Shown here: positions 21,300-54,325 of the stretch, piece after piece | Layout: each line of letters opens with the position of its first letter | Numbering within the stretch: the first letter of the stretch is position 1 | Program-made: the position numbers and the translations under genes | NCBI GenBank assembly: GCA_964424455.1 | Contig: CAYRJA010000005.1 | Coordinates: 3,344 to 67,343, forward strand | Source: an uncultured Bifidobacteriaceae bacterium | Lineage (GTDB): Bacteria; Bacteroidota; Bacteroidia; Chitinophagales; UBA10324 | Direction of reading: 5' to 3' | DNA: 64,000 nt | Notes under the pieces: generated by a model | Told to the model about the DNA's origin: nothing | What the model saw: the letters and a program-made list of their open reading frames with translations, nothing else | The model's database searches: none

Positions 21300-21339
21300 G
21301 TTTGCAGAAAATTTCTAAATCATTTTTAATTCGCTAATC

Positions 21340-21633: not shown

Positions 21634-21636
21634 GCT

Positions 21637-35337: not shown

Positions 35338-35347
35338 ATTTATTGTG

Positions 35348-37686: not shown

Positions 37687-37836
37687 TTACAGTATTTGCT
37701 TGTTTTCTTTTATAATATCAAACGGCTTATTTTTATCTGCATAGTTTCTTAAAACTCTGGTGTAATTATCCATCCGTATAGTGTAAGAAAAGATGACAGG
37801 AAGAGAAACATAACTCAGCATAATCCTTCTGCTCAT
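37687..37836 (-). CDS. possible 49-aa small ORF, translationally coupled
   Basis: I translated it by hand as MSRRIMLSYVSLPVIFSYTIRMDNYTRVLRNYADKNKPFDIIKENKQIL. Its ATG overlaps the TGA of the upstream gene (ATGA). It is below the ORF-track size cutoff and has no recognisable motif. Confidence 0.25.
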   Translation of the reverse strand: MSRRIMLSYVSLPVIFSYTIRMDNYTRVLRNYADKNKPFDIIKENKQIL

Positions 37837-39680
37837 GAAACAACATTTTTTTCTTTAGTTGTTTCCTTAGTTATACTTTGGTTTGTTTCAGCCGGGTTCT
37901 TTGCATTGAGAAAATGGTCTCTCGCAATTAATGCTGCTCCAAAAGAAACTACATACTGTGGTTCCTCCAGTACAGAAATTTTTTGATTGAAATTTTCCTC
38001 CAGCATTTTCTTTAAATACGGATGGTGTGCGATGACACCACCAATCATTACAGTGGGAATGGATGGAGCAATACGCATCTTCGCCACACGGCTTCCGATA
38101 GAGAGGTATATTCCTTTAGCAAGGTTTTCAATTGGCTGTCCGTCAAAAATCCATTTCATTATTTCTGTTTTAGCGAACACGGTACAGAAACTGTTCAACT
38201 CCTGTTTGTAGTCCGATTGTTCGGCAAGGCGGCTCATCTCTTTTATGTCAATTCCCGCACGCTCCGCAATTTCTGTAAGGAAGGCTCCGGTTCCTGCAGC
38301 GCATTTATCGTTGAGATAAAAATTTTCCACCTTACCTTCTTTATCCGTATGGATAACTTTGATGTCTTCGCCGCCTATATCAAGTATATTTTTTTCTCCT
38401 GGGATAATTTCATTCACACCTTCTGCCGCACAATTAATTTCTGTTTTAACAATATCGCCATCAGGGAAATTTTTTCTTCCATATCCCGTTGCGCAGGAAA
38501 ACTTAACCGGAAACTCTTCCATAATGGCATTGATGATATGTTTGGAAGCGATTTTGTCGCGGTTCAGTGTCTTTAACAGGTAACGGAATACGATGTGTTT
38601 CTCTTCGTCAATCACCGTAAACTTGGTATATGCCGACCCCAGATCAATTCCGAGAAAGCAATTACCTTTTGGATGAATATGTTTTTTGAGAGAGATTTTT
38701 GATTTGGAAACATTAGCTTGCTGATGCGATACTTCCGACAGAATATTTTTCTGTGTCATCGCTTTCACCATATTCACCATAGATAGATTCAGCGGTGTAC
38801 GGATATAGTGCTTTCTTCCATATTCTACCAGTTTGCCATTCATATAATCAATCTCGGTCTGGCGGTTGTTCATTAAATCTCCTGCAAGCGATGGATAGTG
38901 ATTGCCGCCTTTGCGCAGGTATCTTAAACAGTTGCGAATGAAATCATCGGGGAAACGAATTTTTTCAGCTTCTGCTACACGAACTGCTTCCTCTATTATT
39001 TGTTCAATGAGTTCAATGGTATCGGGGAATGCCATTGCTTCAGCCATAGTGAAGCGTCCTATTCCGCACAATGCGGAGAGGGATGAATTTAAAATCGTTT
39101 TCTCCCAAGCACATTTTGTTAACTCAAAAGAGGATATGGATTTTGTTTCTAATTGAACGCTGTTCAGAATTGAAGCAATTTCGTCTGTAATGTTTTTCCT
39201 GCTTTCATCCAGTGGTGCAATATAGTTTGGAGGATTGAAGAAGGTAACTTTCACCGTATTAGGAGCAGAAAGATTCCCCGCAAAATTGATGACCATTCTT
39301 CCGGTTCTCTTCTCTCCGGCTTTATCCGCCAGGATATGCTCTACATCAATGCCGTTTTGTGCAGAAATAAAAAACGAAGTACTGTCTTGGGGTATATCAT
39401 TCAGAATACTTTCCACCTGATATGATTTCAGGCATACAAAAACTATTTCCGGATGCTGCTTTAGTAATTCTGCTGCTGATGGATATATTTTTTCAAATCG
39501 TGCTTTTTTCTCAATCGCATTTTCGAGCCGGATTCCTTCATTCTTAATTTGATTTGCTTTTATTCTGTCATTGTCACAAATCAGAACATTGCAGCCTGCC
39601 TCCTGAAAGTGCACGGCAAGAATCATCCCGACGGGACCTAAGCCGACGATTCCGATTGTTTTATTTTTTTCTGTACTCAT
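37833..39680 (-). CDS. fusion protein: ketopantoate-reductase (ApbA/PanE) family oxidoreductase + BcrAD/BadFG-type activase ATPase
   Basis: 615 aa. The N-terminal half has IGIVGLGPVGMILA, WEKTILNS and PSLAGDLMNNRQTEIDYMNGKLVEYG (PanE family). The C-terminal half has LGIDLGSAYTKF, NDKCAAGTGAFL and FCTVFAKTEI (activator cluster cysteines). Confidence 0.8.
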   Translation of the reverse strand: MSTEKNKTIGIVGLGPVGMILAVHFQEAGCNVLICDNDRIKANQIKNEGIRLENAIEKKARFEKIYPSAAELLKQHPEIVFVCLKSYQVESILNDIPQDSTSFFISAQNGIDVEHILADKAGEKRTGRMVINFAGNLSAPNTVKVTFFNPPNYIAPLDESRKNITDEIASILNSVQLETKSISSFELTKCAWEKTILNSSLSALCGIGRFTMAEAMAFPDTIELIEQIIEEAVRVAEAEKIRFPDDFIRNCLRYLRKGGNHYPSLAGDLMNNRQTEIDYMNGKLVEYGRKHYIRTPLNLSMVNMVKAMTQKNILSEVSHQQANVSKSKISLKKHIHPKGNCFLGIDLGSAYTKFTVIDEEKHIVFRYLLKTLNRDKIASKHIINAIMEEFPVKFSCATGYGRKNFPDGDIVKTEINCAAEGVNEIIPGEKNILDIGGEDIKVIHTDKEGKVENFYLNDKCAAGTGAFLTEIAERAGIDIKEMSRLAEQSDYKQELNSFCTVFAKTEIMKWIFDGQPIENLAKGIYLSIGSRVAKMRIAPSIPTVMIGGVIAHHPYLKKMLEENFNQKISVLEEPQYVVSFGAALIARDHFLNAKNPAETNQSITKETTKEKNVVS

Positions 39681-40897
39681 TGATACACTTTTGATGATTC
39701 TATCTGCTCAATAAATGTTTCAATCTTTGTTATGCTCTGCCCTTCGGAGAAAAACCTCAGGTCGCATAAATCACCTTCAATAACTAAATAAGGAACGCCG
39801 GTTATTTCTCTCAGGCGCTGTGGCATACCAAACTTGGCGTTTGAATTATTGAAGCAGGTTTTTGTATCATGAAACAATATTCCGTCGCATTGATATTCTT
39901 TCAACCACGATGCCAGCATTTTCATTTTGGCTTTTTCACTTCGGTTGATAAATATTTTTGTATAGGCAAGCGCTGAAGATTCGAACGGCTCATTCTCATC
40001 AAACTCATCAAACACCCAACTGCTGCAATAAGTGGAAGCCACCACAGAAGTACGGTTTTCAATGAACAAGTCCGACAACATTCTGATTTTTCCCCATATA
40101 GGCATTCCTTCCCAGAAAAGCCGGCACTGTTCATTCTTTACCGCTCCGGTATGATTCTTAACATTCTCCTGAAGTTCCTGTAACAGCTTCGCATAATAAT
40201 CTTTTGCCTGCTCTGTTCCGCGCATCACTACAATTGGACCCATGTGAATGACTCCATCGAAGAAGCTGAGAGGTGCGGGAGAAGCTGTTGAAGTTTTCAG
40301 TACTTGTTGCCAAAGAAGTGTAGCTTCTTTGCTGAGGAGAATCGTGTGTTTGAACCGATCTAAATCGAAATTGTTCCCACTTGTCTGTTCACAAAGGGGA
40401 ATTATTTTTTTGAACTGTTCAATGACTAATGCGATTTCATCTTTCGTTACTTCATCCACATAACGCGGCGGGTGTATTCCCGCAATGGGGCAATTAAATT
40501 CTTTAGCAAAAAAACTGAACCAGTCCTGCACTTCACGGCATTGGTTGGTATTGTAAACAATCAAGTCGGGCTTGGGAATGGAAGTCATTCCATAGTGCTT
40601 CTGAAGCGGAGTTTGTTTTTTTAAATAGGAGCCAATGTCAGAGGTAGTATAAGAGCAAATGTGATTGGAATAACCATAAGTGGCTGCTTCTGGAATAAGA
40701 TCCATAGCAGTGCGGGTTGCACCTAATAGCGCTCCGTGGTTTTCAGGGAAATAAACTTCAAAGCCAAACGAACGAAGTAATTCGGCAGGACCCACACTGG
40801 TACACCAGGCAACAGGATTACCATCCGACCCGAGCGACCGGAAATAGTTGCCCATCAGATTTTTCAAAAGCGCCGTTGATTTTATTTCATACATCAT
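39677..40897 (-). CDS. 2-hydroxyacyl-CoA dehydratase / benzoyl-CoA reductase B/C-family subunit (orphan single subunit)
   Basis: 406 aa with VAWCTSVGPAELLRSFGFEVYFPENHGA, typical of the HgdA/B and BcrB/C family. It overlaps the fusion gene by 4 nt. Confidence 0.8.
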   Translation of the reverse strand: MMYEIKSTALLKNLMGNYFRSLGSDGNPVAWCTSVGPAELLRSFGFEVYFPENHGALLGATRTAMDLIPEAATYGYSNHICSYTTSDIGSYLKKQTPLQKHYGMTSIPKPDLIVYNTNQCREVQDWFSFFAKEFNCPIAGIHPPRYVDEVTKDEIALVIEQFKKIIPLCEQTSGNNFDLDRFKHTILLSKEATLLWQQVLKTSTASPAPLSFFDGVIHMGPIVVMRGTEQAKDYYAKLLQELQENVKNHTGAVKNEQCRLFWEGMPIWGKIRMLSDLFIENRTSVVASTYCSSWVFDEFDENEPFESSALAYTKIFINRSEKAKMKMLASWLKEYQCDGILFHDTKTCFNNSNAKFGMPQRLREITGVPYLVIEGDLCDLRFFSEGQSITKIETFIEQIESSKVYQ

Positions 40898-40911: not shown

Positions 40912-42678
40912 TTATACCGGTTGTTTCAGATTTAAAGAGTTTAACTCATTCGCATCGCGCAGATAGACAACATATACCTTTTCTTTTAGTCTGTTATCAC
41001 CGTTGTAAAGATTTTCCAATTCAGCTTTATATGCTTTGAATACATTGTTGGGTGCTACTTTCATTGACGGAGTAAGTGTTCCTTTATCAATGGACAGTTC
41101 ATCATCAATAATCAATGCTGCTTTTATTTTGGCAAACTTTTGTTTCACTCCACAGTTTGCATCATTCAGGCATCCTTGCAGGCAATGACTAAGTTCATTC
41201 AAATTGCGCGGACAAAAGCATCCTTCAAGCGGCGAGACCTCGTAGTCGGGATTTTCAATTAGTTTTTTGTTCGGAAATAATAATGCCACAGGATATTCTC
41301 TTCCACCACCGGTAACCACAGCAAATGAAATGTAATGACATTTACTTTGAATGATGGATTCCATTTCTGTTGGAATCACTTTTTCACCATTGGTTAATTT
41401 AAAAATACGGTCTTTGCGGGTAATCAGCTTCAATCCTTTTTCTGTTATCTCACCAACATCACCGGTTCTGAACCATCCGTCAGCCGTAAAGATGTCTTTA
41501 TTGGCTTCATCGTTTTTGTAATAGCCGCACATCACATTAGGTCCTTTCACCTGAATTTCATTCTCTTCACCCAACCGTATGCTCACACCCGGAATTGGTT
41601 TTCCGACCACTCCGGCTTCGCGTTTTATTTTCGGATTCGTCAGAGTGCAGCAAGGTGATGTTTCCGTTAATCCCCAACCTTCTATCACTGGAATTTTTCG
41701 TTTCTCAAATTCACGGGATAGGTTTTCTGGCATAGGCGCAGCGGCAGTAAAGACAAACTTTAATCCTGAATGGAAAAATAATTCTTCTGCTTCTCTACTT
41801 TCTTTAGTAAGTTCAAACAATGCCTGATAAACCTTTGGTACACTGAAAAATACTGTAGGTTTAATTTTTTTCCAGTTTTCAAAAATCATCCCTGTATCTT
41901 TTCCATAACCTGACTCCAGCGAATACACAGCGCCGCGATATACAGCATTGAACAATTCAAAGATTCCGCCAAAACTATGATGCCATGGCAGGTAGGAAAG
42001 AAAGCGGTCATTTTCATTCAGGTCCCACCAATCCACTCCATCTAATGCTGCCTGTTGCGATAAAATATTTTTGTGTGAAAGCCGTACACATTTTGGAATA
42101 CCCATTGTGCCTGAAGTGTACATTTCCAGACATATTTCATCGGGTGGTGCATTGAAGTTCAGTAAGAAGTTATTATCGCTCCGTTCCTTTTTTAATTTTT
42201 CAAATTCAACAATGTTTTTAAAATTTAATGGGTTAATGTTTTTTTCAAATACAAATATTTTCTTCAGAGAGATTTCATCAGGAATGTTACTGAGTTGCTG
42301 TTCACCTTCAACAGCAAGATATCCGGCTTCTGAATGGTTAATCAGCAATTCGGCGGTATCTTTCTTAAAGCCCGCAAAAATTGGAACGGCAATTCCACCT
42401 ACAGACATTACGGCTAATTCCATTTCCAGCATTGCCTTACAGTTGCGTGAAAAGATGACCATCTTTTCACCTTCTGAAAATCCAAGTTGTTTCAGATTAT
42501 ATGCAATATTCAGAATATCGTTGTAGCTATCTTTCCATGTGATGCCCGTATAGTTACCTTCAACTTTCTCCTGAAAAATAATTCGTTCCTCAAAACGGTG
42601 TACATTATTTCTCAGCATCGTAGAAATATTCGGAACGATGTTGCCTGACTTATTATCTGATTCGAGTATCACGGGCAC
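40912..42678 (-). CDS. AMP-dependent acyl-CoA synthetase/ligase
   Basis: 588 aa with YTSGTMGIPKCV, GWGLTETS and GWFRTGDVG. The substrate cannot be read from the sequence. Confidence 0.85.
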   Translation of the reverse strand: MPVILESDNKSGNIVPNISTMLRNNVHRFEERIIFQEKVEGNYTGITWKDSYNDILNIAYNLKQLGFSEGEKMVIFSRNCKAMLEMELAVMSVGGIAVPIFAGFKKDTAELLINHSEAGYLAVEGEQQLSNIPDEISLKKIFVFEKNINPLNFKNIVEFEKLKKERSDNNFLLNFNAPPDEICLEMYTSGTMGIPKCVRLSHKNILSQQAALDGVDWWDLNENDRFLSYLPWHHSFGGIFELFNAVYRGAVYSLESGYGKDTGMIFENWKKIKPTVFFSVPKVYQALFELTKESREAEELFFHSGLKFVFTAAAPMPENLSREFEKRKIPVIEGWGLTETSPCCTLTNPKIKREAGVVGKPIPGVSIRLGEENEIQVKGPNVMCGYYKNDEANKDIFTADGWFRTGDVGEITEKGLKLITRKDRIFKLTNGEKVIPTEMESIIQSKCHYISFAVVTGGGREYPVALLFPNKKLIENPDYEVSPLEGCFCPRNLNELSHCLQGCLNDANCGVKQKFAKIKAALIIDDELSIDKGTLTPSMKVAPNNVFKAYKAELENLYNGDNRLKEKVYVVYLRDANELNSLNLKQPV

Positions 42679-42699: not shown

Positions 42700-43572
42700 T
42701 TATCCTGTAACAGCAGCTTCTTTTTCCTTTAATTTTCTATCTCTGTATCCGCCCCACAATGCCGCACCAATGGCTCCCGCATAAATTGAATCGGGATGTG
42801 CCAGCACTTCAAACTTCTTGTTGCCTTCTTCTATTGCTTCCTCAATAGCTCTTAGCATACCACTATTTAAAGCCATGCCTCCTGTAAGTACTATCGGTGA
42901 TTCTGATTTGAGCGAACTCATCAGTTTAATGATTCGTGAAGCGATGGAGATATGAATTCCTTTGATAATGTCAGGTGTTTTTACTCCTCTTGAAACCATA
43001 TTAATTACATCAGTCTCCGCTAATACAGCACAAATTCCTGAAGAAACTTCCGGCTGTTCCGACTGCTTAGATATGTCACCCAGCTCTTCAATGGATAAGC
43101 CGAGATAACGGGAAATGTTTTCTAAAAACTGCCCCGAACCGGATGCGCACTGTCCTGTCATTTTGTAATCCATTACACGTGCGCTATCAGAAATTTTTAT
43201 AGCACGAACATATAGTGCACCCATATCAATAACGGTTTTTGCGTTCGGGAAAAGATATTTGGCGCCTTTAGCATGAGTAGTCATACCATAAAAATGTCCG
43301 CGCTTCCTTTTTACTAAATCGCCTTCACCGGTAGATGCGAGATAAGCAATGTCTTCATATTTCAGATTATGTTTTGCGAGCATGGCTTTAATCATGTCGT
43401 CTGAAACCTGCGAAGGATCTCGCTTGCGAATTTTTTCGGTTTGTCTGTCAAGCAATTTTGACTGCAAACCTTCATCGTCCTCATTTGAATGAGATGTGGT
43501 GTATTCCATCAAAACCAACTTGATGTAGTTACTGCCGACATCAATTCCCATTGTTAAAAAATCTGAATTCAT
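42700..43572 (-). CDS. bcrD: benzoyl-CoA reductase ATPase subunit, BcrD/BadG-like
   Basis: 290 aa with MGIDVGSNYIKLV, GQCASGSGQFLE and ICAVLAETDVI. It is the second of two different BcrAD_BadFG ATPases in tandem. Confidence 0.7.
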   Translation of the reverse strand: MNSDFLTMGIDVGSNYIKLVLMEYTTSHSNEDDEGLQSKLLDRQTEKIRKRDPSQVSDDMIKAMLAKHNLKYEDIAYLASTGEGDLVKRKRGHFYGMTTHAKGAKYLFPNAKTVIDMGALYVRAIKISDSARVMDYKMTGQCASGSGQFLENISRYLGLSIEELGDISKQSEQPEVSSGICAVLAETDVINMVSRGVKTPDIIKGIHISIASRIIKLMSSLKSESPIVLTGGMALNSGMLRAIEEAIEEGNKKFEVLAHPDSIYAGAIGAALWGGYRDRKLKEKEAAVTG

Positions 43573-43621
43573 AGCGCTTCGTTTTTTACAATTTTATTGT
43601 ATCAATTAATTGAATGATTAT

Positions 43622-45049
43622 TTAAGCGTTCACTGCCTTCTTCGCACTGGGTAACTCTACCTTTTCATTCCTGCGCGCAAACATTGCTCCGCCCAAAGCT
43701 CCCATAAAAATGGAATCGGTATGAATGTTTATTGTGATTGTATCACCGTAGTTATCCCGTACCAATTTCTGCAAGTGATTTACCACCGCCACATTTCTTG
43801 CCACACCACCTGTGAAAGTAAATTCGTTAAATACGCCGCCCGATCTTGCCAGCAGCGACATTGCACGCATAACAATTGCTTTGTGCAATCCGCCTAAAAT
43901 ATCTTCGCGCTTCTCTCCGAGATTGGTTAGTTCGCGTAATTCAGCGCCGGCAAATACGGTACAAGTTGAGCAGATGCTGACTTCTTTCTGTGCATTGTTT
44001 GCCATAGGACCAAGTTCGTTAAGAGAGATGCTCATTTCATCAGCGATATAACCAAGATAACGTCCGCATCCTGCAGCACAACGGTCGTTCATCTGGAAAC
44101 TGGTAACCAGACCGTACTTGTCCACCTGAATGGCTTTGGTATCCTGTCCGCCAATATCCAGTACTGTTCTTGTATTTGGGAAGAATGCGTGTGCGCCAAA
44201 AGCGTGACACAAAATTTCGGAGCGGATGCACTCCTGCGGGAACGGAAGCAACGCCCTTCCATATCCGGTGCCTGTCATATTCTCAATATTAAATTCCAGG
44301 TCAGCAACTTCATCAATATGGTTGCGCAGCGACTCAGATACATTTTTGAAATCGCCTTTGAGTAAATACATTTCCATATCAAAAGCATCTTCATCTTTTA
44401 TTTCCACATCGGCTGGTTTGTCCGGCAGATTGTCGTACTTATCTTTCAACACTTCCATTGCCTGATGAACAAGTCCTTTGAAATCAAAATTGATGACTTC
44501 ATTTTCAGCAGGGGTAATACTTTTATCCCACACTGTCATTAAAGGTTCAAAGAGGGAAATATCTAATTTGGCAACTTCTTCATTGTATTTCTCGGAAACG
44601 ATATCACGGAAGAATTGATTTTTTGCACCGAGGTTATTGTAGAGATAGTCGTGTTTAATCTTAGGTTTGAAAGATCTGCGGATGTTTCTAAGATGTTCCA
44701 CCATTTTATTCTGAGTGGCTTCATCTTTGAAAAAGGTTTTGCAGGTTTTCAGCAACTGCTCGCCTAAGTTGTCCAACCGGATTTTAAATTGTTCATACTG
44801 AAAAACACTCTCCAAATCGGAAATGTATTTTTTGTATTCCGGCTTCTCCCTTATTTCAGCATCCATATTTTTTTTGAGAACATAAAAGCGGGCGTTGTAA
44901 GTTGCTTCCATACGGGCAATGTCAGCAGCCACACTGTAATTAGCACGGGTGTTAGTGATACCGCGTCCGATAATTTCATCCTGCTCGTTGATGATTACTG
45001 CTTTGGATGTGGTTGAACCAAGGTCAACTCCTAAATAATATTTACTCAT
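43622..45049 (-). CDS. bcrA: benzoyl-CoA reductase ATPase subunit, BcrA/BadF-like
   Basis: 475 aa with YLGVDLGSTTSKAVI, a large insertion, then DRCAAGCGRYL and CTVFAGAEL. Confidence 0.7.
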   Translation of the reverse strand: MSKYYLGVDLGSTTSKAVIINEQDEIIGRGITNTRANYSVAADIARMEATYNARFYVLKKNMDAEIREKPEYKKYISDLESVFQYEQFKIRLDNLGEQLLKTCKTFFKDEATQNKMVEHLRNIRRSFKPKIKHDYLYNNLGAKNQFFRDIVSEKYNEEVAKLDISLFEPLMTVWDKSITPAENEVINFDFKGLVHQAMEVLKDKYDNLPDKPADVEIKDEDAFDMEMYLLKGDFKNVSESLRNHIDEVADLEFNIENMTGTGYGRALLPFPQECIRSEILCHAFGAHAFFPNTRTVLDIGGQDTKAIQVDKYGLVTSFQMNDRCAAGCGRYLGYIADEMSISLNELGPMANNAQKEVSICSTCTVFAGAELRELTNLGEKREDILGGLHKAIVMRAMSLLARSGGVFNEFTFTGGVARNVAVVNHLQKLVRDNYGDTITINIHTDSIFMGALGGAMFARRNEKVELPSAKKAVNA

Positions 45050-45098
45050 AATGTTGAATTGCTTAGGTTTATAAAATCATTTCTTTTGTGTTCTTCTT

Positions 45099-46394
45099 TC
45101 ATGCTGTTTCCTGTGCAAGAATAGTTTTTCTCTGTTCCAGCATCTGGAAATAACTCTCCAAACGGTTTTTGATATTGGCGTAAGAGAAGTAGCGTGGATC
45201 TACCAAATCACTTTCAATAAATCCGACAGGTATGCTGAGCCGTTGTTCAATTTCGCGCATCATCAATAATTGTCCTGCCGAGAATGAGTTGCAACTCTTG
45301 ATGGAGTTGATTAAAAAACCATCTGCCTGATATTCTTTGATGTATTTCTCCAATAAATTAACCCGCTGCGGGAGATTCAAATTAGTGTAACAGCTCATAC
45401 AATATCTTGCTAAACTTTCAAGCGGTTTGGATGAATCGTGGCGGAAACCAAAGTCATAAAAGCCGCCTACTTTCGTGTAGGTGGAGGCAACAATGACTGC
45501 TCCCATATCATAAAATATTTTCCAGAACTCGCGGAAGTTGGTCCAGTTCGGAGGACCCTCAACAACGAGACGAAATTTTTCTTCTTTCAGAACTCCTTCC
45601 GGTGTAATGGGCAGCAGACCTTGTTTTATCCTATCGCTTACTTCATTATACAACTCCTTGTAATATCCCACAGCAGTTTCAGTTCCTCTGAATGCTGTAT
45701 TCATTGGTCCCATATAATACACTCCGGCGAAGTAAGCATCAATGGGTGAAGGTTTGTTCTTAGCGCTTTCCAACACTTTCACCCAATAGTCTTCCGCTTC
45801 GGCAGAGTTATCCATCATTTTTGCAAGGCGTTCATAATCCAGTTTTTTACCTGCTACCTGTTCCATCTTAGGAATCACCTCTTCCTTCAACTGTTTCACC
45901 ATATAATCTACCATCTGTTGTGTGATTTGACCATTCTCCTGATAAGGGGTATGCAGCATGGCAACCGGAACGCCAGGATACAAACGCTCTAAATTCTCAA
46001 ACCACTTCATAAAGGTGAAACAGCCGGTATAACTCAGCAGCAGTAAATCAGGGTTGGGTATTTTTTCTCCGGAAGGACCGACATTTCCATTCAGCATCAT
46101 TCCGATATCGCACTTGACATAGGTACACACATCTTCAGAGTGTCCCATCTTTTCGGCATCTTTGATAAACGCTCCCGAACGCTTTCGCATACCTGATTGC
46201 AGTGCATTAATCTCGGGATAAACGGGCAACATATCCAAAGCGAGTATTAATTCGGTAAGGTTGCCGGGCACAAAAGTGTAAACCACTTTTTTTCCGGTTT
46301 CTTTGGCCGTGCTTAATTCTTTAAAGAGGTTGCTCAGCATTTCCTTCTGGAGCACCATGCTTTTTTCTTTGATGACTTCTTTAGTAGTACTCAT
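45099..46394 (-). CDS. bcrB: benzoyl-CoA reductase subunit, BcrB/BadE-like (HgdB-family)
   Basis: 431 aa with dehydratase-family architecture. Size and position match the B subunit of the bcrCBAD order. Confidence 0.7.
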   Translation of the reverse strand: MSTTKEVIKEKSMVLQKEMLSNLFKELSTAKETGKKVVYTFVPGNLTELILALDMLPVYPEINALQSGMRKRSGAFIKDAEKMGHSEDVCTYVKCDIGMMLNGNVGPSGEKIPNPDLLLLSYTGCFTFMKWFENLERLYPGVPVAMLHTPYQENGQITQQMVDYMVKQLKEEVIPKMEQVAGKKLDYERLAKMMDNSAEAEDYWVKVLESAKNKPSPIDAYFAGVYYMGPMNTAFRGTETAVGYYKELYNEVSDRIKQGLLPITPEGVLKEEKFRLVVEGPPNWTNFREFWKIFYDMGAVIVASTYTKVGGFYDFGFRHDSSKPLESLARYCMSCYTNLNLPQRVNLLEKYIKEYQADGFLINSIKSCNSFSAGQLLMMREIEQRLSIPVGFIESDLVDPRYFSYANIKNRLESYFQMLEQRKTILAQETA

Positions 46395-46447
46395 AGGTTC
46401 TACAGATTAAGTGTGATTTTTATTTACATTTCATTTTTCATCCGCGA

Positions 46448-47611
46448 CTAAGCCCACAGTTTTATGGAGTCGGCAAAAGTTCCAGTCTGTTCTTTGATGA
46501 CTTTAAACTGTCCTGTATTTTCATTGAATTGAAAATTGATGTGATTGAGTCCCGCATCATCGCATGCTTTCTGTAGTTGCGGTTGGTCTAATAATGCAGG
46601 ATCGCAGAAACTTGCTGCACAGAAAATCACACCGTCTGCATTTCTATTCTTCGCTTTATTCACTAACCGTTTTCCTTTCGGGTTTCCTACATCATAAAGT
46701 GCGGAAGAGAAATCACTCTTTGTCAAGAATGCTTTTGTCAATGCGTTAATCGGATCTTCAGTTGTTGCATCCACATCGCCTTTAATCCAACGTGAGCCGA
46801 GCATGAAATCATCATCTACGATGTAACATCCTGACATTTCTATTGACTTAATTAAGCCGACAGGCGGCTGTTCACAGAAAGAGCCGCTCACCACTACACG
46901 GATGTTATCCATCGGCTCGCCGCTTTCTTCCTGCAAATAATTACTCACCTGTTCCAGCATTTCGTTATGCTTTTCTACATTAATTACCATACCCGCTCTT
47001 ACGATATGATATAAATCCGCTGCTGATATTCTCCACGGGAATTCTGAACGGATGTCATACAGTTGTTCTATCAGTTTTCTATTTTTATTGTAGAGCTTAA
47101 TAGCGTGATTCAGCTTTTCGGTTGTAATCTTTACACCATTTATTTCATACATATCCTGAATAATTTCACCCAGCATTTTCTGATAAAAAACACCGCCTAT
47201 CTCCGGGTCAAAATTTTGCGGATAATCAAAGTATCGGGTGAACTTTCCCTTTTTTGCCAGCTTAAACATACCGGACAGGTTACGAATGCAATCACATATA
47301 GCAGGGAATAAGAATCCATCAAAGCCATCAAAGTTTGTATCAAGAGCCAGTTCTATTATTCCTCTCGGCAAATGGCAGATATAAGATTGGTAATATGCAT
47401 CGCCTTTGATGATTTGCTTCCGGTCACCCACACCCATTGTGCCGACAGCAAGACCGTTTGCAGCATATACAATTTCTCTTGGTATGTAAATGGGGAGATA
47501 TCCGACTAAAATTCTATCGTTACTTTCTGCCTTCCATTTTTTTGCGAATGTAAAATTCAGGTCAAAGGCAAGTTCCTTGCATTCTGTTATAATCTCCTGA
47601 AGTGATGCCAT
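46448..47611 (-). CDS. bcrC: benzoyl-CoA reductase subunit, BcrC/BadD-like
   Basis: 387 aa, dehydratase family, and the first gene of the operon. Size and position match the C subunit. Confidence 0.7.
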   Translation of the reverse strand: MASLQEIITECKELAFDLNFTFAKKWKAESNDRILVGYLPIYIPREIVYAANGLAVGTMGVGDRKQIIKGDAYYQSYICHLPRGIIELALDTNFDGFDGFLFPAICDCIRNLSGMFKLAKKGKFTRYFDYPQNFDPEIGGVFYQKMLGEIIQDMYEINGVKITTEKLNHAIKLYNKNRKLIEQLYDIRSEFPWRISAADLYHIVRAGMVINVEKHNEMLEQVSNYLQEESGEPMDNIRVVVSGSFCEQPPVGLIKSIEMSGCYIVDDDFMLGSRWIKGDVDATTEDPINALTKAFLTKSDFSSALYDVGNPKGKRLVNKAKNRNADGVIFCAASFCDPALLDQPQLQKACDDAGLNHINFQFNENTGQFKVIKEQTGTFADSIKLWA

Positions 47612-47631
47612 AATTTATTGAACTTTATAGA

Positions 47632-47639
47632 CAAACTTA
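47632..47639 (-). promoter_or_regulatory. Bacteroidota -7 promoter box for the bcr operon
   Basis: The minus strand reads TAAGTTTG, an exact TAnnTTTG match, ending 21 nt upstream of the bcrC ATG. Confidence 0.4.
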
Positions 47640-47661
47640 ATTTTATCCCCACTTTATTAAT

Positions 47662-47699: not shown

Positions 47700-47777
47700 T
47701 TCCTGTAATTCTGTTTTTTTTGTTCTTTCACAATCAAACTATTTGAAAAGTTGGGTATCCGGAACGGAAAACAAGAA

Positions 47778-48413
47778 ATGAAAACATCAGCGATAATTCT
47801 TGCAGGTGGAAAATCCGAGAGGATGAATTTTCCCAAACCGTTTCTCTTGTTCAACGAGAAGAAAAATTTTCTGCAACAGATAATTGATGAATACATCCGC
47901 TTCGGCAGCAATGAAATTTTACTTGTGTTCAATCATGAATTGCTTGACAATAAATGGCGGAAATATTCAGAGCATCTGCCTCTGTGTGTTACAGTAGTTC
48001 CCAATCATTTTCCGGACTCGGGACGCTTTTTTTCTCTGAAACTTGGATTGTCTAAATTAAATAATACTTCATTCTGTTTCGTGCAGGATGTAGATAATCC
48101 GTTTGTAACAGAAGCACTATTGAAATTGCTTTTTAAAAACAAAAACGAAAACGGTTACTCCGCACCTTACCATACTTCTCTTTCTGCTGATGGCAAAACA
48201 GAGGTCAAATCAGGCGGTCATCCGGTTCTTCTTTCAAAAAAAATTATTGACTTCATTAAAAATACAAAGCAGGATAATTTGAACCTGAAAGAGGTGATAC
48301 AGAAATTTGATAAAACACCTGTAGAAGTTTCAGATAAAAACATTCTGGTCAATATCAATACCCCCTTTGAGTATGAAAAATTTTTTGGCAGAAAATACCA
48401 AGCAATTATTTAA
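47778..48413 (+). CDS. mocA: MobA/MocA-like molybdenum cofactor nucleotidyltransferase
   Basis: I place the start at ATG 47778 (MKTSAIILAGGKSERM) rather than the TTG at 47751. It has the NTP_transf_3-type glycine-rich loop. Confidence 0.75.
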   Translation: MKTSAIILAGGKSERMNFPKPFLLFNEKKNFLQQIIDEYIRFGSNEILLVFNHELLDNKWRKYSEHLPLCVTVVPNHFPDSGRFFSLKLGLSKLNNTSFCFVQDVDNPFVTEALLKLLFKNKNENGYSAPYHTSLSADGKTEVKSGGHPVLLSKKIIDFIKNTKQDNLNLKEVIQKFDKTPVEVSDKNILVNINTPFEYEKFFGRKYQAII

Positions 48414-48457
48414 ACACATGAATACTTAATCCACTCGTTTCTCTGTAAATTGATAAA

Positions 48458-49261
48458 TTGAAAACGCTATACGAAAAAATATTACAGATTATAAACAGCG
48501 ATGATAAAGCGGCGCTTTGCACCATTATCTCAACAAATGGCTCAACTCCTTTGAAGGCAGGCGCTAAGATGATTGTGTGGAACGACGGAAAAATTTTTGG
48601 AACAATAGGAGGAGGCAGCTTGGAAAAAAAAGTAACAGAGGATGCAATAGAAATATGCCAAAGCCGGCAGGCGCAGGTTTTTACTCATGAGCTATTGCGC
48701 CAGCACAGCATGTGTTGTGGCGGAACGGTGGAAGTTTTTATAGAACCGGTACTGAACCAACCTCAACTCTATATTTTCGGAGCAGGACATGTCGGAAAAG
48801 CATTATCGGGTTATGCAAAAGATATGGGTTTCAGAGTAACACTTATTGATGAGAGAAAAGAAATTTTTTATAATGTGCCTTTGGAAAATATTACAGTTGC
48901 CAATACTTCTCACCAGGATTTTCTCGATTCAATAAAATTTGATAAAAACGTATTTGTCGTGATTTGCACACATATCCATGCTTACGACCGTGAAATATTA
49001 TCCCGCTGCATCAAACAACCTTTGACTTATCTCGGAATGATAGGCAGCATGCGTAAAGTGAAGGTCACCCGAAAGATGTTTCTGTCAAGCGGTACTGTAA
49101 CAGAGGAAGAATTAAACAAAGTGGACATGCCCATAGGGTTCGATATAGGAGGAAACACTCCCGGCGAAATCGCCATCAGTATATTGGCAAAAATGATTGC
49201 AGTAAAAAATAATCGTCCGGTAAATGTGACGAACACATTTTTAGAAACTTTAAATCCCTGA
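48458..49261 (+). CDS. xdhC: XdhC/CoxI-family molybdoenzyme maturation protein
   Basis: 267 aa with AALCTIISTNGSTPLKAGAKMIV and the Rossmann-like IFGAGHVGKAL. Confidence 0.85.
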   Translation: MKTLYEKILQIINSDDKAALCTIISTNGSTPLKAGAKMIVWNDGKIFGTIGGGSLEKKVTEDAIEICQSRQAQVFTHELLRQHSMCCGGTVEVFIEPVLNQPQLYIFGAGHVGKALSGYAKDMGFRVTLIDERKEIFYNVPLENITVANTSHQDFLDSIKFDKNVFVVICTHIHAYDREILSRCIKQPLTYLGMIGSMRKVKVTRKMFLSSGTVTEEELNKVDMPIGFDIGGNTPGEIAISILAKMIAVKNNRPVNVTNTFLETLNP

Positions 49262-49266: not shown

Positions 49267-49782
49267 ATGTATTCAAAAGCAACACAGATTTTATTTGATG
49301 AACACGAAGTGATTCTCAAAGCAATTGAACAGGCGAGCGCCATTCTACAGCAGAATGATTTATCTGCACACAAAGACGAACTGCTCTGGTATGTCCGGTT
49401 CTTTAGAGAATATGGCGATGAGTATCATCACCAGAAAGAAGAGGAAATCCTGTTCCGGTTCATTGAAGAAAATAATGAGATGCTCGGTGGAGGGCTTATC
49501 AGTTCGCTTACCGATCATCACAATGAATTTCGCGAAGCTCTTCGCAATGCACAGGACGCTCTTCTGAATGCTCAGTGGGATAGTGCGAAAAAGATTCTCA
49601 ATGCTTATTTCTCTGATATGAGAGACCACATTGGAGCGGAGAATGATGAACTGTTCATCAGTTCTGATACTATGCTGAGTGATCAGGAGAAAGAAACTAT
49701 TTATTTCAGATTCATGGATAAAGACAGGGAACTTGGTGATGAGAGAAAAAGTGATTTAGAAAATAAGATAAATAAAAGTTAA
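49267..49782 (+). CDS. hemerythrin-like domain protein
   Basis: 171 aa with His/Glu/Asp-rich helices HHQKEEEILF, DHHNEF and RDHIGAENDELF. Confidence 0.7.
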   Translation: MYSKATQILFDEHEVILKAIEQASAILQQNDLSAHKDELLWYVRFFREYGDEYHHQKEEEILFRFIEENNEMLGGGLISSLTDHHNEFREALRNAQDALLNAQWDSAKKILNAYFSDMRDHIGAENDELFISSDTMLSDQEKETIYFRFMDKDRELGDERKSDLENKINKS

Positions 49783-49784
49783 CA

Positions 49785-50519
49785 ATGAAGCGTATTGCTG
49801 TTGTAACAGGCGCTGCAAAAGGAATCGGCAAAGCCATTGCCGAAAGGTTGGTGGCTGATCAATTCTTTGTGGTGCTAGCGGATATTGATGAAGCAAACGG
49901 AAAATCGCTTGCGGAAAAACTGGGAAAAGAAAATGCAGCATTTTATCCCTGTGATATAGTCAGTGACAACTCCGTAAGCGAACTCTTTCAGAAAATTTTG
50001 AACCGGTTCAAACGATTAGATACGGTAGTAAATAATGCAGGAATCATCCGCGATAACATGATATGGAAAATGAATTCTGAAGATTTTGATATGGTACTGA
50101 ATGTTAATCTTAAAGGTGTATGGCTGATGTGCCGTGAAGCAGCAAAAATTTTCAGGGAGCAAAAGAACGGCTGCATTGTAAATATTTCTTCGCGTGCATG
50201 GCTCGGCAACAAAGGACAGAGCAATTATTCCGCATCCAAAGCTGGAGTGGTTGCGCTTACCCGTGTTCTTGCTCTGGAGTTGGGTAAATACAATGTTTCG
50301 GTAAATGCGGTTGCCCCCGGACTGATTGATACACCATTGACAAAGAAATTGGAAGAAGATGTTTTGCAAAAATTAATTGAGGCACAGCCCACAAAGACGA
50401 TGGGTAAACCTGAAGATGTAGCGAATGCTGTTTCTTTTCTTGTGTCTGACAAAACACATTTCATCACCGGTCAAACGATTTATGTAGATGGCGGGAAAAG
50501 CATCGGTGCAGGAATTTAG
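49785..50519 (+). CDS. short-chain dehydrogenase/reductase (FabG-like)
   Basis: 244 aa with VTGAAKGIGKAIA, NNAG and YSASKAG. Confidence 0.85.
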   Translation: MKRIAVVTGAAKGIGKAIAERLVADQFFVVLADIDEANGKSLAEKLGKENAAFYPCDIVSDNSVSELFQKILNRFKRLDTVVNNAGIIRDNMIWKMNSEDFDMVLNVNLKGVWLMCREAAKIFREQKNGCIVNISSRAWLGNKGQSNYSASKAGVVALTRVLALELGKYNVSVNAVAPGLIDTPLTKKLEEDVLQKLIEAQPTKTMGKPEDVANAVSFLVSDKTHFITGQTIYVDGGKSIGAGI

Positions 50520-50561: not shown

Positions 50562-53390
50562 ATGAAGCAACTGAAATTAACAATCAACGGGAAGCAAATA
50601 GAATTATTAGTTGGCGAGCACGAAATGCTCTCATCTGTGATTCGTGAAAAAGCAGGATTCACCGGAACAAAAATCGGTTGTGAGCAGGGTAGTTGCGGAG
50701 CGTGTACAGTGCTGATCAATAATGAACCCGTGTTGAGTTGTATCACTCCTGCAATGCGTTGCAATGAATCGGATATTTTAACGATAGAAGGAGTGGCAAC
50801 CAGTGCAAACCTGCATAAACTGCAGGAAAAATTTGTAGAAAAGGGAGCCACACAGTGCGGCTTCTGTACGCCCGGAATGGTGTTGACCTCACTGGATTTC
50901 ATCAACAATAATCCTAAGGCGACGGTCAATGAAATCAAAGAAGCATTATCCGGTAATCTCTGCCGATGTACAGGGTACAAAAAAATAATAGAAGCGGTTG
51001 CTGAATATTCTGATGAGCAATTTAACAGTCAATCAGATATATCTTCAACAAAACGACAAACGAATAATGAAGCGTTCAATACAATTGGCGCTCCGAGACC
51101 TTATATAGAAGCAGGAAAAAAGGTGCAGGGCATTGCCGAATATGCAGATGATGTGCGGGTAAAAAATTCTCTGCATTGTAAATTTTTAAAAAGTGTTCAT
51201 GCTCATGCAATAATCGAGAACATAGATATTTCAGCAGCAGAAAAATTAAGCGGTGTACGAGGTATCTGCATAGGATCTGAACTGCCGGCAAAATTTGGTG
51301 TGCTGCCTATTTCTCAGGATGAAGCAGCTATGGCAATTGAGAAAACCAGATACATCGGAGAGATTGTTGCTGCAGTTGCTGCCGACACAGAGGGAATTGC
51401 AGAGCAGGCATGCAAACTGATTAAAGTAAAATATAAACCACTCAAAGAATATTTCACTATAGAAAGTTCTTTGAACGACATCGGAAAGAATGAAAAAATT
51501 CATTCTCACACCAGACAGAACAACAACATACACAAAAAAGCAGAGTTGCGTTTTGGTAATCAGCAACAAGGACTGGCTGAAGCAGATGTTCGCAGCAAAA
51601 TGAGTTTTGAGTTTGAAGGAGTGAGTCATGGATTTACCGAACCACATGCTGCTACTGCTTATTGGGATGAGAATGGATTAACCATAATTTCTGCTACACA
51701 AGTTCCGCATTACCTGCACAGAGCATTGGCAAAAGTTCTTGAACTTCCTTTGGCAAGAGTTCGGGTTATCAAGCCGGTAGTAGGTGGTGGATTTGGCGGC
51801 AAAAGTGATCCCTTCCCCCATGAAATCATCATCGCATATTTAGCACGAAAAACGGGTAAGCCGGTACGTGTTCGTTTGAACAGGGAAGAGGTATTCATCA
51901 CCAATCACGGACGACACCCTTCAAAAATGACAATTGAAATGGGCGTTTCAAAAGAAGGTGAATTTAAAGTACTGGATGCGGATATTACCATTGACGGCGG
52001 CGCTTATGGAAGTTTTGGTGTGGTTACTTCTTACTATAACGGAGTGCTGTTACAGGCACCTTACAAGATTGACAATCTCGGCTTTCGTACATTCAGGGTA
52101 TATACCAACAAACCGCAATGCGGCGCTATGCGCGGACACGGGGCAGTAAATTCCCGCTTTGCAGTGGAATGTATTATTGACGAACTGGCTGAGAAAATAA
52201 ATGCCGATCCCTGTGAACTGAGAATGAAAAATTTTCTTTCCTCCAACACCCTCACTGTCGGACAATACCGGATTACCTCCAACGGCAGCCGTGAAAGTTT
52301 ACAAACAGTGATGAACCAATCGGAATGGAAAAACAAATTCCGCAAGCTTCCTTTCGGTCATGGTATCGGTGTGGGTTGTGGTTTTTTCATCAGCGGCAGC
52401 GCTCTGCCTATCATTTGGAATGAGTTGCCCCAATCTACCGTACATCTTAAAGTTGACTTCGATGGCAGAGTACTGATTACTTCGGGAGCAAGCGATATCG
52501 GTCAGGGAAGCGATACCATGCTGGCAATTATTGTGGCGGAAGTACTGGGAATTTCTATGGATAAAATTTTTGTTCTTGCTGCAGATACCTTGCTGACACC
52601 CGTTGATCTGGGCAGCTATTCCAGCCGTGTAACTTTTATGGCGGGCAATGCAGCAAAGAATGCCGCAGAGAATTTGAAAAAAGAAATGTTACAGTCCATT
52701 TCTCAGAAAAAGAATATCGAAGAATCTGAATTGAATTTTTCTAACGACATGATTTTTTCAAATGACCGTAAAGTAGATTTGAGTTGGGAAGAAGCGATAG
52801 AAATTCTTACAGCAAAACGAGGTGCAGTGAGCGTGAGTGGGAAATACATCTCACCCAAATTAGGGGGTAATTTCAAAGGAGCCGGAGCCGGATTAAGCCC
52901 ATCTTATTCATTTGGCGCCTGTATTGCCGAAGTCAAAGTAGATACGGAAACAGGACTTGTGAAATTGCTGAATGTTTGGGGTGCACATGATTGCGGAAAA
53001 GCCATTAACCCATTGGCAGTAGAGGGGCAACTTGAGGGCTCATGGCACATGGGTATCGGGCAGGCAATAAGTGAGCAGATGAAATATTATGGCGGGTTAC
53101 TATTGAATAATAATTTTCTCGATTATAAAATTCCAACCACATTGGAAACACCGGATTTTTGTACGAACATCATTGAAAGCAATGATCCGGAAGGTCCCTT
53201 CGGAGCAAAAGAATGTGGCGAAGGCGCTTTGCATCCGGTGATGCCGGCAATAGCTAATGCCATTTATGATGCGGTAGGGGTTAGGGTAAGCAAGTTACCG
53301 GTCAGTGCGGAAGAAATTTTAGTGAAACTCACGGAAGCAGATATCGAATCATCAGGAGCAATCATGAATAAAACAAAACAACCAGGATGA
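50562..53390 (+). CDS. fused [2Fe-2S] + molybdopterin-binding subunit of a xanthine-oxidase-family enzyme (4-hydroxybenzoyl-CoA reductase gamma-alpha-like)
   Basis: 942 aa. The N-terminus has CEQGSCGACTV, CGFCTPGM and CRCTGY (two 2Fe-2S sites), followed by a roughly 770-aa Mo domain with VVGGGFGGKSDP. Confidence 0.8.
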   Translation: MKQLKLTINGKQIELLVGEHEMLSSVIREKAGFTGTKIGCEQGSCGACTVLINNEPVLSCITPAMRCNESDILTIEGVATSANLHKLQEKFVEKGATQCGFCTPGMVLTSLDFINNNPKATVNEIKEALSGNLCRCTGYKKIIEAVAEYSDEQFNSQSDISSTKRQTNNEAFNTIGAPRPYIEAGKKVQGIAEYADDVRVKNSLHCKFLKSVHAHAIIENIDISAAEKLSGVRGICIGSELPAKFGVLPISQDEAAMAIEKTRYIGEIVAAVAADTEGIAEQACKLIKVKYKPLKEYFTIESSLNDIGKNEKIHSHTRQNNNIHKKAELRFGNQQQGLAEADVRSKMSFEFEGVSHGFTEPHAATAYWDENGLTIISATQVPHYLHRALAKVLELPLARVRVIKPVVGGGFGGKSDPFPHEIIIAYLARKTGKPVRVRLNREEVFITNHGRHPSKMTIEMGVSKEGEFKVLDADITIDGGAYGSFGVVTSYYNGVLLQAPYKIDNLGFRTFRVYTNKPQCGAMRGHGAVNSRFAVECIIDELAEKINADPCELRMKNFLSSNTLTVGQYRITSNGSRESLQTVMNQSEWKNKFRKLPFGHGIGVGCGFFISGSALPIIWNELPQSTVHLKVDFDGRVLITSGASDIGQGSDTMLAIIVAEVLGISMDKIFVLAADTLLTPVDLGSYSSRVTFMAGNAAKNAAENLKKEMLQSISQKKNIEESELNFSNDMIFSNDRKVDLSWEEAIEILTAKRGAVSVSGKYISPKLGGNFKGAGAGLSPSYSFGACIAEVKVDTETGLVKLLNVWGAHDCGKAINPLAVEGQLEGSWHMGIGQAISEQMKYYGGLLLNNNFLDYKIPTTLETPDFCTNIIESNDPEGPFGAKECGEGALHPVMPAIANAIYDAVGVRVSKLPVSAEEILVKLTEADIESSGAIMNKTKQPG

Positions 53391-54325
53391 TAACAGAAAG
53401 GATTTACCATAAGGCAAAGACAGTTCAGGAAGCATTGAATCTGGCTTCTCAGTTCAGAGATGATTTCTGCTTTGTTGCAGGAGGAACGGATATAATGGTG
53501 AATAAATTTCAGGGAAATGAAAGTGCTGCCTGCCTGATTGATTTAACCGGCATTGAAGAGTTGAAATCAGTAAAACAGGAAGACGATTATCTGAAAATAG
53601 GTTCATTAGTTCGATTGGCTGATTTGAAAAAGCATGCTGAGATTAATAAAGAATTTCCGATACTGATTGAGGCAGCGCACTCAGTTGCTTCGCCGGTAAT
53701 CAGGCGGACAGCAACGCTTGGTGGAAATATTTTATGCGAAAACCGATGCGTATTTTACAACCAGTCAGAGTGGTGGCGCGAAGCGGTCGGTTACTGTCTG
53801 AAATGCGATGGCGACATTTGCATTGCAACCGGTGGAGCTAAAAATTGTTTCTCAAAGTTCGCTTCAGACACTGCCATTGCATTGATCAGCATGGATGCAA
53901 GCATTGAAATTGCTTCTGCAGATTCAATAAGTATTATCAAACTCACAGACATCTACACCGGAGATGGGATTAATCCACGCAGATTAGACAAGAATATAAT
54001 CATCAAACACATATTGCTTCCACTCCACCGGCAGTTCAGGTGTTCTTACAAAAAATTAAGACAGCGTGAAAGTATGGATTTCAGTTCGCTGACAAGTTGT
54101 GTTTCCATAGATAAAAACGGGAATATCAAAATCGCTCTCGGTGCTGTTGATCCGAAGCCCATTTTAGTAGAGGGCAGCATTAATGACGATAAGAATCTTC
54201 TGATTCAGCAAGCATTCAAAAAAGCACGGGTAATTGACAATGATGTTTTTTCAAGAAAATACAGAAGGGAAATGATTAAGGTATTGCTGGGAAGGAGTTT
54301 TGAAGAAATTGAAAAAGATTCTTGA
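53387..54325 (+). CDS. hcrB: FAD-binding subunit with Cys-rich insertion (4-hydroxybenzoyl-CoA reductase beta-like)
   Basis: 312 aa with FVAGGTDIMV and TLGGNI. The insertion CENRCVFYNQSEWWREAVGYCLKCDGDICIATGGAKNC carries Cys117, 121, 137, 140, 145 and 154. Confidence 0.75.
   Translation: MITERIYHKAKTVQEALNLASQFRDDFCFVAGGTDIMVNKFQGNESAACLIDLTGIEELKSVKQEDDYLKIGSLVRLADLKKHAEINKEFPILIEAAHSVASPVIRRTATLGGNILCENRCVFYNQSEWWREAVGYCLKCDGDICIATGGAKNCFSKFASDTAIALISMDASIEIASADSISIIKLTDIYTGDGINPRRLDKNIIIKHILLPLHRQFRCSYKKLRQRESMDFSSLTSCVSIDKNGNIKIALGAVDPKPILVEGSINDDKNLLIQQAFKKARVIDNDVFSRKYRREMIKVLLGRSFEEIEKDS

Follow-up and report, generated by a model that had tools for sequence, protein, structure and literature searches.

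The closest described relatives of the system treated here are the class I benzoyl-CoA reductases (BCRs) of Thauera aromatica (BcrCBAD) and Rhodopseudomonas palustris (BadDEFG). The clusters of Thauera, Rhodopseudomonas and Azoarcus encode a dedicated ferredoxin. To our knowledge, the class I enzymes characterized biochemically all come from Proteobacteria, plus one archaeon. We examined a stretch of 64,000 nucleotides (the window) from metagenomic contig CAYRJA010000005.1, assigned to the Bacteroidota, in which four genes at positions 42700-47611 resemble this system. Our analysis suggests that these genes very probably encode a functional Thauera-type class I BCR native to a Bacteroidota genome. 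The sequences show which genes are present, the families they belong to, conserved cluster ligands, synteny, purifying selection and the host context; catalytic activity, substrate and electron donor are predicted from these.

The four genes are contiguous on the minus strand in the order C-B-A-D, with gaps of 26-53 nt. They are bcrC (46448..47611, 387 aa), for the gamma subunit with the predicted electron-transfer [4Fe-4S] cluster; bcrB (45099..46394, 431 aa), for the beta subunit with the predicted catalytic [4Fe-4S] cluster; bcrA (43622..45049, 475 aa), for an ATPase subunit of the long type, which carries about 190 inserted aa; and bcrD (42700..43572, 290 aa), for a short ATPase subunit. 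Searches against Pfam placed the bcrC and bcrB products in the HGD-D family (PF06050, E ~1e-67) and the bcrA and bcrD products among the BcrAD_BadFG ATPases (PF01869, E 3e-67 and 7e-61). A first-pass annotation, made from the sequence before our analysis, had described four consecutive genes of these lengths, two for dehydratase-family subunits followed by two for different BcrAD/BadFG ATPases, and both the open reading frame (ORF) coordinates and the Pfam domains agree with it. BCR-type enzymes have a long alpha subunit of about 48 kDa, with a large insertion compared with HgdC-type activators. This architecture was evident in BcrA, where the 271 positions of PF01869 were spread over residues 6-458 and activators in the PDB aligned to residues 232-463 only.

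Family assignment was made with NCBIfam equivalog models, each with its own cut-off. The best match of each of the four subunits was a Bcr model (TIGR02263 for BcrC, TIGR02260 for BcrB, TIGR02259 for BcrA and TIGR02261 for BcrD), and BcrB (689 bits, cut-off 486.55) and BcrC (458 bits, cut-off 421.15) passed. Bzd-type models gave the window subunits 83.7, 94.3, 138.1 and 104.1 bits (cut-offs 380-454), the BzdO model scoring 94 bits on BcrB. An exhaustive search of 50%-identity cluster representatives returned two full-length relatives of BcrB at 58-61% identity, the next being at 43% or less. Scores of these representatives on the BcrB model were 815, 689 (the window) and 630, then 374, 298, 297 and 266, and the clear gap below 630 bits places the window protein inside the curated BcrB family. 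The equivalog scores thus bear out the earlier assignment to the Thauera/Rhodopseudomonas type in C-B-A-D order.

The cluster-bridging cysteine motifs quoted for both ATPases in the first-pass annotation were all found verbatim, with DRCAAGCG at residue 322 and CTVFAG at residue 363 of the 475-aa protein, and GQCASGSG at residue 140 and ICAVLAE at residue 180 of the 290-aa protein, which has no further cysteines. C324 and C363 are the cluster ligands of BcrA, in which DIGGQDTK is also intact, and C142 and C181 of BcrD line up with cysteines that serve as cluster ligands in HgdC, HadI and MbdQ. Each ATPase subunit has two such cysteines, as needed for one bridging [4Fe-4S] cluster. At residues 116-123 BcrD has DMGALYVR in place of the DIGGQDxK found in BcrA and in every activator with a solved structure. 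A degenerate ATP site was considered as an explanation and rejected, since the motif DxGAL(Y/H)xR is kept family-wide, both within and outside the clade from the Fibrobacterota-Chlorobiota-Bacteroidota (FCB) group described below. This implies that the two nucleotide sites are inherently asymmetric.

Catalytic residues were examined in the same way. C90, C125 and C368 of BcrB align to C95, C128 and C380 of BzdO, the three ligands of its catalytic [4Fe-4S]-OH2 cluster (Fuchs et al. 2025, PMC11971306). All three, together with E61, were invariant among the 82 family members compared; E61 lies in a stretch outside the alignment and is presumably equivalent to Glu65 of BzdO. The position of BzdO His131 is occupied by Phe both in the window BcrB and in MbdO. 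Within BcrC, C79, C106 and C336 have aligned counterparts in MbdN and HadC, and the six-cysteine double-cubane set of BzdN is absent, the second Cys of the CxxC and other ligands being missing.

The cluster is under purifying selection and has been selectively maintained. Ratios of dN/dS against the nearest relative were 0.02-0.05 with dS saturated, those of bcrB, bcrA and bcrD being about 0.02-0.03 (bcrB 0.02) with dN of 0.03-0.06. Similarly low ratios against this relative were observed for the accessory genes.

Downstream of bcrD, on the same strand, we found genes for the subsequent steps of ring degradation. Following three accessory genes that are treated separately below, these encode a thiolase (acetyl-CoA C-acyltransferase; 36412..37668; TIGR01930, 384 bits, cut-off 241), Had (35348..36415; TIGR03201, 455 bits, cut-off 339), the ring-cleaving 6-oxocyclohex-1-ene-1-carbonyl-CoA hydrolase Oah (33257..34354; TIGR03200, 595 bits, cut-off 464), a Dch-like cyclohexa-1,5-dienecarbonyl-CoA hydratase (32472..33260; best match TIGR03189, 220 bits) and a FadB-like protein in which 3-hydroxyacyl-CoA dehydrogenase and enoyl-CoA hydratase are fused (30475..32475; PF02737, PF00725, PF00378), all on the minus strand. 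The bcr genes are thereby linked to dienoyl-CoA hydratase-like, Had and Oah genes in one operon. By its predicted gene functions, the window encodes the complete Thauera-type route that starts at benzoyl-CoA and leads to 3-hydroxypimeloyl-CoA and further, in line with the earlier proposal of a complete dearomatization pathway in a Bacteroidota member. No transcriptional regulator gene was found in the window cluster.

One gene of this operon is a host marker and encodes no pathway enzyme. Located between had and oah (34375..35418, minus strand), it encodes a PCMD-domain protein sorted by the type IX secretion system (T9SS) (PF18962, PF13201). A gene of this kind also follows had in the closest relative of the cluster, whose BcrB is 93% identical, and was absent from the other 80 loci. 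Its listed ATG overlaps had by 71 nt and the gene of the relative encodes 323 aa; the true start probably lies downstream of the listed ATG.

On the other side of bcrC a divergent, plus-strand operon encodes a putative molybdoenzyme. It begins with genes for molybdenum-cofactor maturation, a MocA-like cytidylyltransferase and XdhC (47751..49261; PF12804; PF02625, PF13478; also NCBIfam models), followed by genes for a hemerythrin-domain protein and a short-chain dehydrogenase/reductase (SDR) oxidoreductase (49267..50519; PF01814; PF13561), which are conserved at many FCB loci. The last two genes encode a 942-aa fusion resembling the gamma and alpha subunits of 4-hydroxybenzoyl-CoA reductase (4-HBCR), with two [2Fe-2S] clusters and the Mo subunit (50562..53390; TIGR03194, TIGR03193), and a 4-HBCR-like beta (FAD) subunit with a [4Fe-4S] loop (53387..54325; TIGR03195). 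Models for 4-HBCR were the best matches for all three parts, with all three scores below the cut-offs: the alpha part had 823 bits on TIGR03194 (cut-off 995), which is 270 bits above any xanthine dehydrogenase model, the gamma part 170 bits on TIGR03193 (cut-off 258) and the beta subunit 222 bits on TIGR03195 (cut-off 405). The best PDB match of the beta subunit was 1RM6_B (E 5.5e-41), and its four loop cysteines are conserved. The predicted route can probably be entered from 4-hydroxybenzoyl-CoA as well.

The divergent intergenic region (47612-47750) contains TAAGTTTG (47632..47639, minus strand), a candidate Bacteroidota sigma-A -7 element located 28 nt upstream of the bcrC ATG. The established Bacteroidota -7 promoter consensus is TAnnTTTG. 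Of 58 FCB loci, 19 have this motif upstream of bcrC, where shuffled sequences gave 4.8 +/- 2.0, and none of 16 non-FCB loci has it. When the regions upstream of bcrC were searched by k-mers for a conserved operator, no long shared motif emerged, the generic -7 element being the only one enriched.

A proposed model for the encoded pathway begins with BcrA and BcrD forming a heterodimeric ATPase that would carry a single bridging [4Fe-4S] cluster on C324 and C363 of A and C142 and C181 of D. A low-potential donor, presumably encoded elsewhere, would reduce this cluster, and ATP hydrolysis would then drive the electron via the [4Fe-4S] cluster of BcrC to the three-cysteine cluster of BcrB (C90, C125, C368, with E61 nearby). 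There, benzoyl-CoA would be reduced to cyclohexa-1,5-diene-1-carbonyl-CoA, which the Dch-like, Had and Oah proteins of the same transcription unit may turn into 3-hydroxypimeloyl-CoA, with the FadB-like protein and the thiolase continuing by beta-oxidation. The 4-HBCR-like molybdoenzyme of the divergent operon is predicted to funnel 4-hydroxybenzoyl-CoA into benzoyl-CoA.

Relatives of the window BcrB were found in at least 591 GTDB species representatives. The 64 best of these (at least 70% identity) come almost entirely from Bacteroidota, including Chitinophagaceae, Saprospiraceae, Flavobacteriales, Vicingaceae, Bacteroidales and Arcticibacter, with the remainder from Ignavibacteria, Chlorobiota and Calditrichaceae (Calditrichota). 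A neighbor-joining (NJ) tree of BcrB showed the FCB sequences as monophyletic with orders intermixed inside the clade, while the most seed-like representative fell in a separate clade with Planctomycetota, Acidobacteriota, Myxococcota and Oligoflexia. Dozens of FCB metagenome-assembled genomes (MAGs) from unrelated studies share the synteny of the cluster.

A number of observations weigh against our reading. BcrD passed TIGR02261 only marginally, at 313.2 bits against a cut-off of 312.85 (a margin of 0.35 bits), and BcrA, although TIGR02259 was its top match, reached 434 bits in two stretches against a cut-off of 578. The BcrA shortfall probably sits in the divergent N-terminal insertion; the core, residues 241-458, matches model positions 216-432. 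The Dch-like protein was also below its cut-off (220 bits against 292.5, the next family having 142). Placement in the Bcr family rests on the curated hidden Markov model scores together with the NJ tree, which is unbootstrapped and was built without named proteobacterial references (Thauera BcrB, R. palustris BadE); a tblastn search against plasmids for proteobacterial Bcr references gave only matches of the 2-hydroxyacyl-CoA dehydratase (HAD) family at 22-27% identity. All 64 FCB-clade carriers are MAGs, none of them cultured. The CoA ligase next to bcrD is not recognizable as a benzoate-CoA ligase: no benzoate-CoA-ligase model was among the 25 best NCBIfam matches listed, and its best PDB match was only a generic ANL enzyme. 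Finally, a six-frame motif scan with inspection of small gap ORFs found no CxxCxxCxxxC ferredoxin ORF in the window, and Pfam searches of the remaining ORFs found no KGOR, PFOR or flavodoxin gene there, which agrees with the first-pass annotation that the window holds no ferredoxin or ferredoxin-regenerating gene. Of 84 related loci, 76 likewise had no ferredoxin-motif ORF within +/-10 kb; one related locus (L059) has one small ferredoxin-like ORF.

We considered whether the four genes might have another function. A Bcr-lineage class I aryl-CoA reductase acting on a substituted benzoyl-CoA (methyl-, hydroxy- or halo-) or on another aryl-CoA has a parallel in MbdONQP, which is specialized in 3-methylbenzoyl-CoA. 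Such a specialization would fit the 58-61% identity of BcrB to the most seed-like representatives, the BcrA score below the equivalog cut-off and the accessory genes that are conserved in this clade, including an unusual ligase. However, BcrB, BcrC and BcrD pass the function-specific cut-offs, the operon encodes Had and Oah of the standard kind, which act on the unsubstituted ring, with scores above theirs, the methyl-specialized MbdO is only a distant match (197 bits), and the adjacent 4-HBCR-like enzyme would strip a para-hydroxyl before ring reduction. On balance we regard a substituted substrate as unlikely. The shared Pfam domains, the HadB and HadC structures as second-best structural matches and a genuine HadB-like gene nearby could also be read as signs of a HAD, or of another non-reductive radical enzyme of the BCR/HAD family, with an unusual heterodimeric activator. 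This is scarcely credible, given that the HadB and HadC models scored 196 bits on BcrB and 165 bits on BcrC against cut-offs of 750 and 700, while the BcrB and BcrC models pass at 689 and 458 bits, and that a long BcrA-type ATPase and linkage to Dch, Had and Oah are present. The subunits thus do not group with the dehydratases; such a grouping was what the first-pass annotation had named as refuting its assignment.

Foreign origin was weighed against a native BCR cluster in the same manner. The first-pass annotation had suggested that the cluster was possibly a horizontally acquired island, by eye more GC-rich than the 10-30 kb region. Numerically the GC difference holds (0.404 at 30.45-54.33 kb against 0.366 at 9.5-30.45 kb), and together with the intermixed orders in the FCB BcrB clade, which are compatible with transfers inside the superphylum, it is what favors a recent import from Proteobacteria. 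A distinct island is not supported, as two of the three flanks match the cluster (0.412 at 1-9.5 kb and 0.400 at 54.3-64 kb) and, taken in 4-kb segments, its tetranucleotide usage and that of the remaining window are correlated at r 0.91-0.95, comparable to the Bat region. A compositional island was therefore rejected; the atypical segments are 56-64 kb, the SprB repeat region, with the most atypical usage of the window (r ~0.64), and 1-8 kb (0.84-0.87). At the edges of the cluster, neither an integrase nor a tRNA nor a repeat boundary was noted. The operon contains a T9SS gene, a Bacteroidota promoter motif precedes bcrC, and the nearest homologues are all from the FCB group, with non-FCB sequences forming a separate clade, all of which makes a recent proteobacterial import very unlikely. 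We infer instead a lineage that is old and specific to the FCB group, with some exchange among members of the superphylum. Since the window was taken from a single 67.6-kb metagenomic contig, one might suspect an artefact of assembly or binning in which a foreign bcr cluster was joined to Bacteroidota flanks. Yet composition is homogeneous across the junctions, the synteny recurs in the unrelated MAGs mentioned above, and in the 93% relative the gene order, embedded T9SS gene included, is the same, as seen on one contig of 610 kb and at least 20 contigs of several independent samples. Because this order is identical in independent assemblies, and host markers are present, chimerism or misbinning is very unlikely.

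Host markers were found on both sides of the cluster. In agreement with the first-pass annotation, SprB repeats, T9SS tails and a Bat operon were present; a MoxR/DUF58/BatA/BatB/BatD operon is found in the flanks, together with a SusC-like receptor and T9SS-tail proteins. A Flavo-1 RNA (RF01705), a Bacteroidota-associated small RNA motif, was observed at 5927-6003 on the plus strand (64 bits, E 1e-11). The SprB repeats, 26 in number, lie in a giant plus-strand open frame (54498-64000, at least 3167 aa) that runs past the window end; its N-terminal domains are CUB-like and galactose-binding-like, and it has a Por_Secre_tail-like match in its interior.

Directly after bcrD lie the three accessory genes, all on the minus strand. 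The first (40912..42678) encodes an AMP-forming acyl-CoA ligase of 588 aa (PF00501 and PF23562). The second (39677..40897) encodes a single HadB-like (alpha-type) HGD-D protein, which scores 233 bits on the HadB model, below the cut-off of 750, against 163 on the BcrB model. Its best PDB match is 3O3M_A (E 5e-52), it is closer to HadB than to MbdO, and it has no beta partner gene. The third (37833..39680) encodes a fusion of an N-terminal PanE/ApbA-like NAD(P)H ketoacid reductase with a C-terminal homodimer-type activase (PF02558, PF08546, PF01869). In its activase part the canonical cysteines are present in CAAGTG (C460) and CTVFAK (C499), and in the PanE-like part GxGxxG and the ketopantoate reductase (KPR) catalytic motifs QNG, WEKxxLNS and TEID are intact. 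This third, PanE-fused activase and the HadB-like subunit, immediately downstream of the bcr genes, had been overlooked by the first-pass annotation.

The trio was observed directly after bcrD in 37 of the 48 FCB-clade loci with enough flank (the AMP ligase being kept after bcrD in 33 of the 48) and in 1 of 7 loci outside the clade. HadB-like orthologues in FCB loci are 65-77% identical, and the PanE::activase fusion family has 685 members from FCB MAGs, which public records name "2-dehydropantoate 2-reductase" or activating ATPase. The module is thus conserved in FCB bcr clusters and so far undescribed. Since the KPR family includes D-2-hydroxyacid dehydrogenases, the trio mirrors the clostridial scheme of a reductase, CoA activation and an activated dehydratase. 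By analogy, we tentatively raise the possibility that the module is a new ATP-activated (R)-2-hydroxyacyl-CoA dehydratase system, although we consider this doubtful at present. Its substrates would be phenylpyruvate and 4-hydroxyphenylpyruvate, the 2-oxo acids of Phe and Tyr, converted through aryl-lactyl-CoA to cinnamoyl-CoA or 4-coumaroyl-CoA, which the FadB-like, thiolase and 4-HBCR-like enzymes might take on to benzoyl-CoA, via (4-hydroxy)benzoyl-CoA, for the reductase. If this is correct, the module together with the missing ferredoxin gene would set the Bacteroidota pathway apart as a variant that has a feeder route and an electron supply of its own. An NADPH-driven supply of electrons to the reductase by the PanE::activase was also considered and rejected on chemical grounds, as no flavin or other hydride-to-one-electron converter appears to be present.

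The first-pass annotation had implied that such a cluster is rare in Bacteroidota. This does not stand: at least 64 species-level FCB MAGs carry the cluster enzyme, and NCBI and JGI records of Bacteroidota MAGs already give many clade proteins the name "benzoyl-CoA reductase subunit B". The titles of the relatives' records suggest groundwater, stratified lakes and wastewater plants as habitats. Published metatranscriptomics reports a Flavobacteriales MAG as expressing enzymes of anaerobic benzoyl-CoA degradation (PMC8099898), and surveys report bcrABCD across many phyla (PMC11704145, PMC10936416), one with a single Bacteroidota MAG and the remark that the phylum is "rarely reported" for mineralizing lignin-derived aromatics (PMC11704145), and another covering the FCB phylum Krumholzibacteriota (PMC10936416). 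Our literature search returned these survey mentions and the one metatranscriptome remark, and no dedicated or biochemical study of Bacteroidota class I BCRs. The window cluster is an ordinary member of a populous, known clade annotated automatically, and it adds little beyond that annotation and the MAG surveys; the leads it offers are the electron donor and the HadB-like/PanE::activase module. Should the enzyme be active, common Bacteroidota that are usually seen as polymer degraders would also mineralize aromatic rings anaerobically, which would bear on carbon-cycle and bioremediation models.

Further genes were observed in the flanks. At 20.9-22.3 kb, genes of SCO1/SenC and copper-chaperone-like type may indicate a respiratory metabolism, which would fit the usual facultative hosts of class I enzymes. 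They belong to a plus-strand group at 18735-22296, consisting of a TonB-dependent receptor followed by small HMA-like (CxxC) and YHS-like ORFs and the SCO1/SenC gene, which looks like a copper-acquisition or copper-chaperone cluster for a cuproenzyme such as a heme-copper oxidase or NosZ. Within the first 7500 nt is a run of small and medium ORFs without a match in Pfam (667-1137, 2340-2978, 4163-5089, 5209-5844 and several of 60-130 aa), along with an RNase_H-superfamily ORF at 6218-6736; this region may be a mobile-element or phage remnant.

Among known systems, the BCRs of T. aromatica and R. palustris are most like the window cluster, sharing its C-B-A-D order, subunit sizes, domain families, long A subunit with insertion, cysteine ligands and dch-like, had and oah genes, with B, C and D at equivalog level. 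The window cluster differs from this type in a BcrB only about 60% identical to the most seed-like representative, a BcrA below cut-off, the lack of an adjacent ferredoxin gene, the Bacteroidota host, and the extra HadB-like and PanE::activase module and atypical ligase after bcrD. Among solved structures, MbdONQP (PDB 9G87, 9GAI) matched each of the four subunits best (E 5e-57 for B, 7e-53 for C, 8e-60 for A and 9e-37 for D), and it shares the three-cysteine catalytic site and the Phe at the BzdO His131 position. It is nevertheless distant, as MbdQ and MbdP are both short (~270 aa) and without the BcrA insertion, and MbdO gives 197 bits where the BcrB family model gives 689. BzdNOPQ (PDB 8S02; PMC11971306) belongs to the same BCR/HAD superfamily and shares the catalytic [4Fe-4S] cysteines, but differs in its models (84-138 bits on the window subunits), in the six-cysteine [8Fe-9S] site of BzdN that is absent in BcrC, and in His131 of BzdO, which is Phe in the window.

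The remaining parts of the locus have other counterparts. HadBC with HadI (PDB 3O3M, 4EHT) represents the same fold families and is the nearest model for the HadB-like protein (39677-40897) and the activase domain (37833-39680), whereas BcrB and BcrC are clearly not HadBC orthologues and are accompanied by two distinct ATPases in place of a single activator gene. Compared with HadBC and HadI, the accessory module lacks a gene for a HadC-like partner, carries its activase as a fusion with a ketopantoate-reductase-like domain, and has a CoA ligase in place of the CoA transferase. For the molybdoenzyme genes (50562-54325), HcrCAB of T. aromatica (PDB 1RM6) was the best family and structure match, sharing the four-cysteine [4Fe-4S] loop, with MocA and XdhC genes alongside; the window differs in its fused gamma and alpha subunits (942 aa), its three equivalog scores below cut-offs and the interposed hemerythrin and SDR genes.

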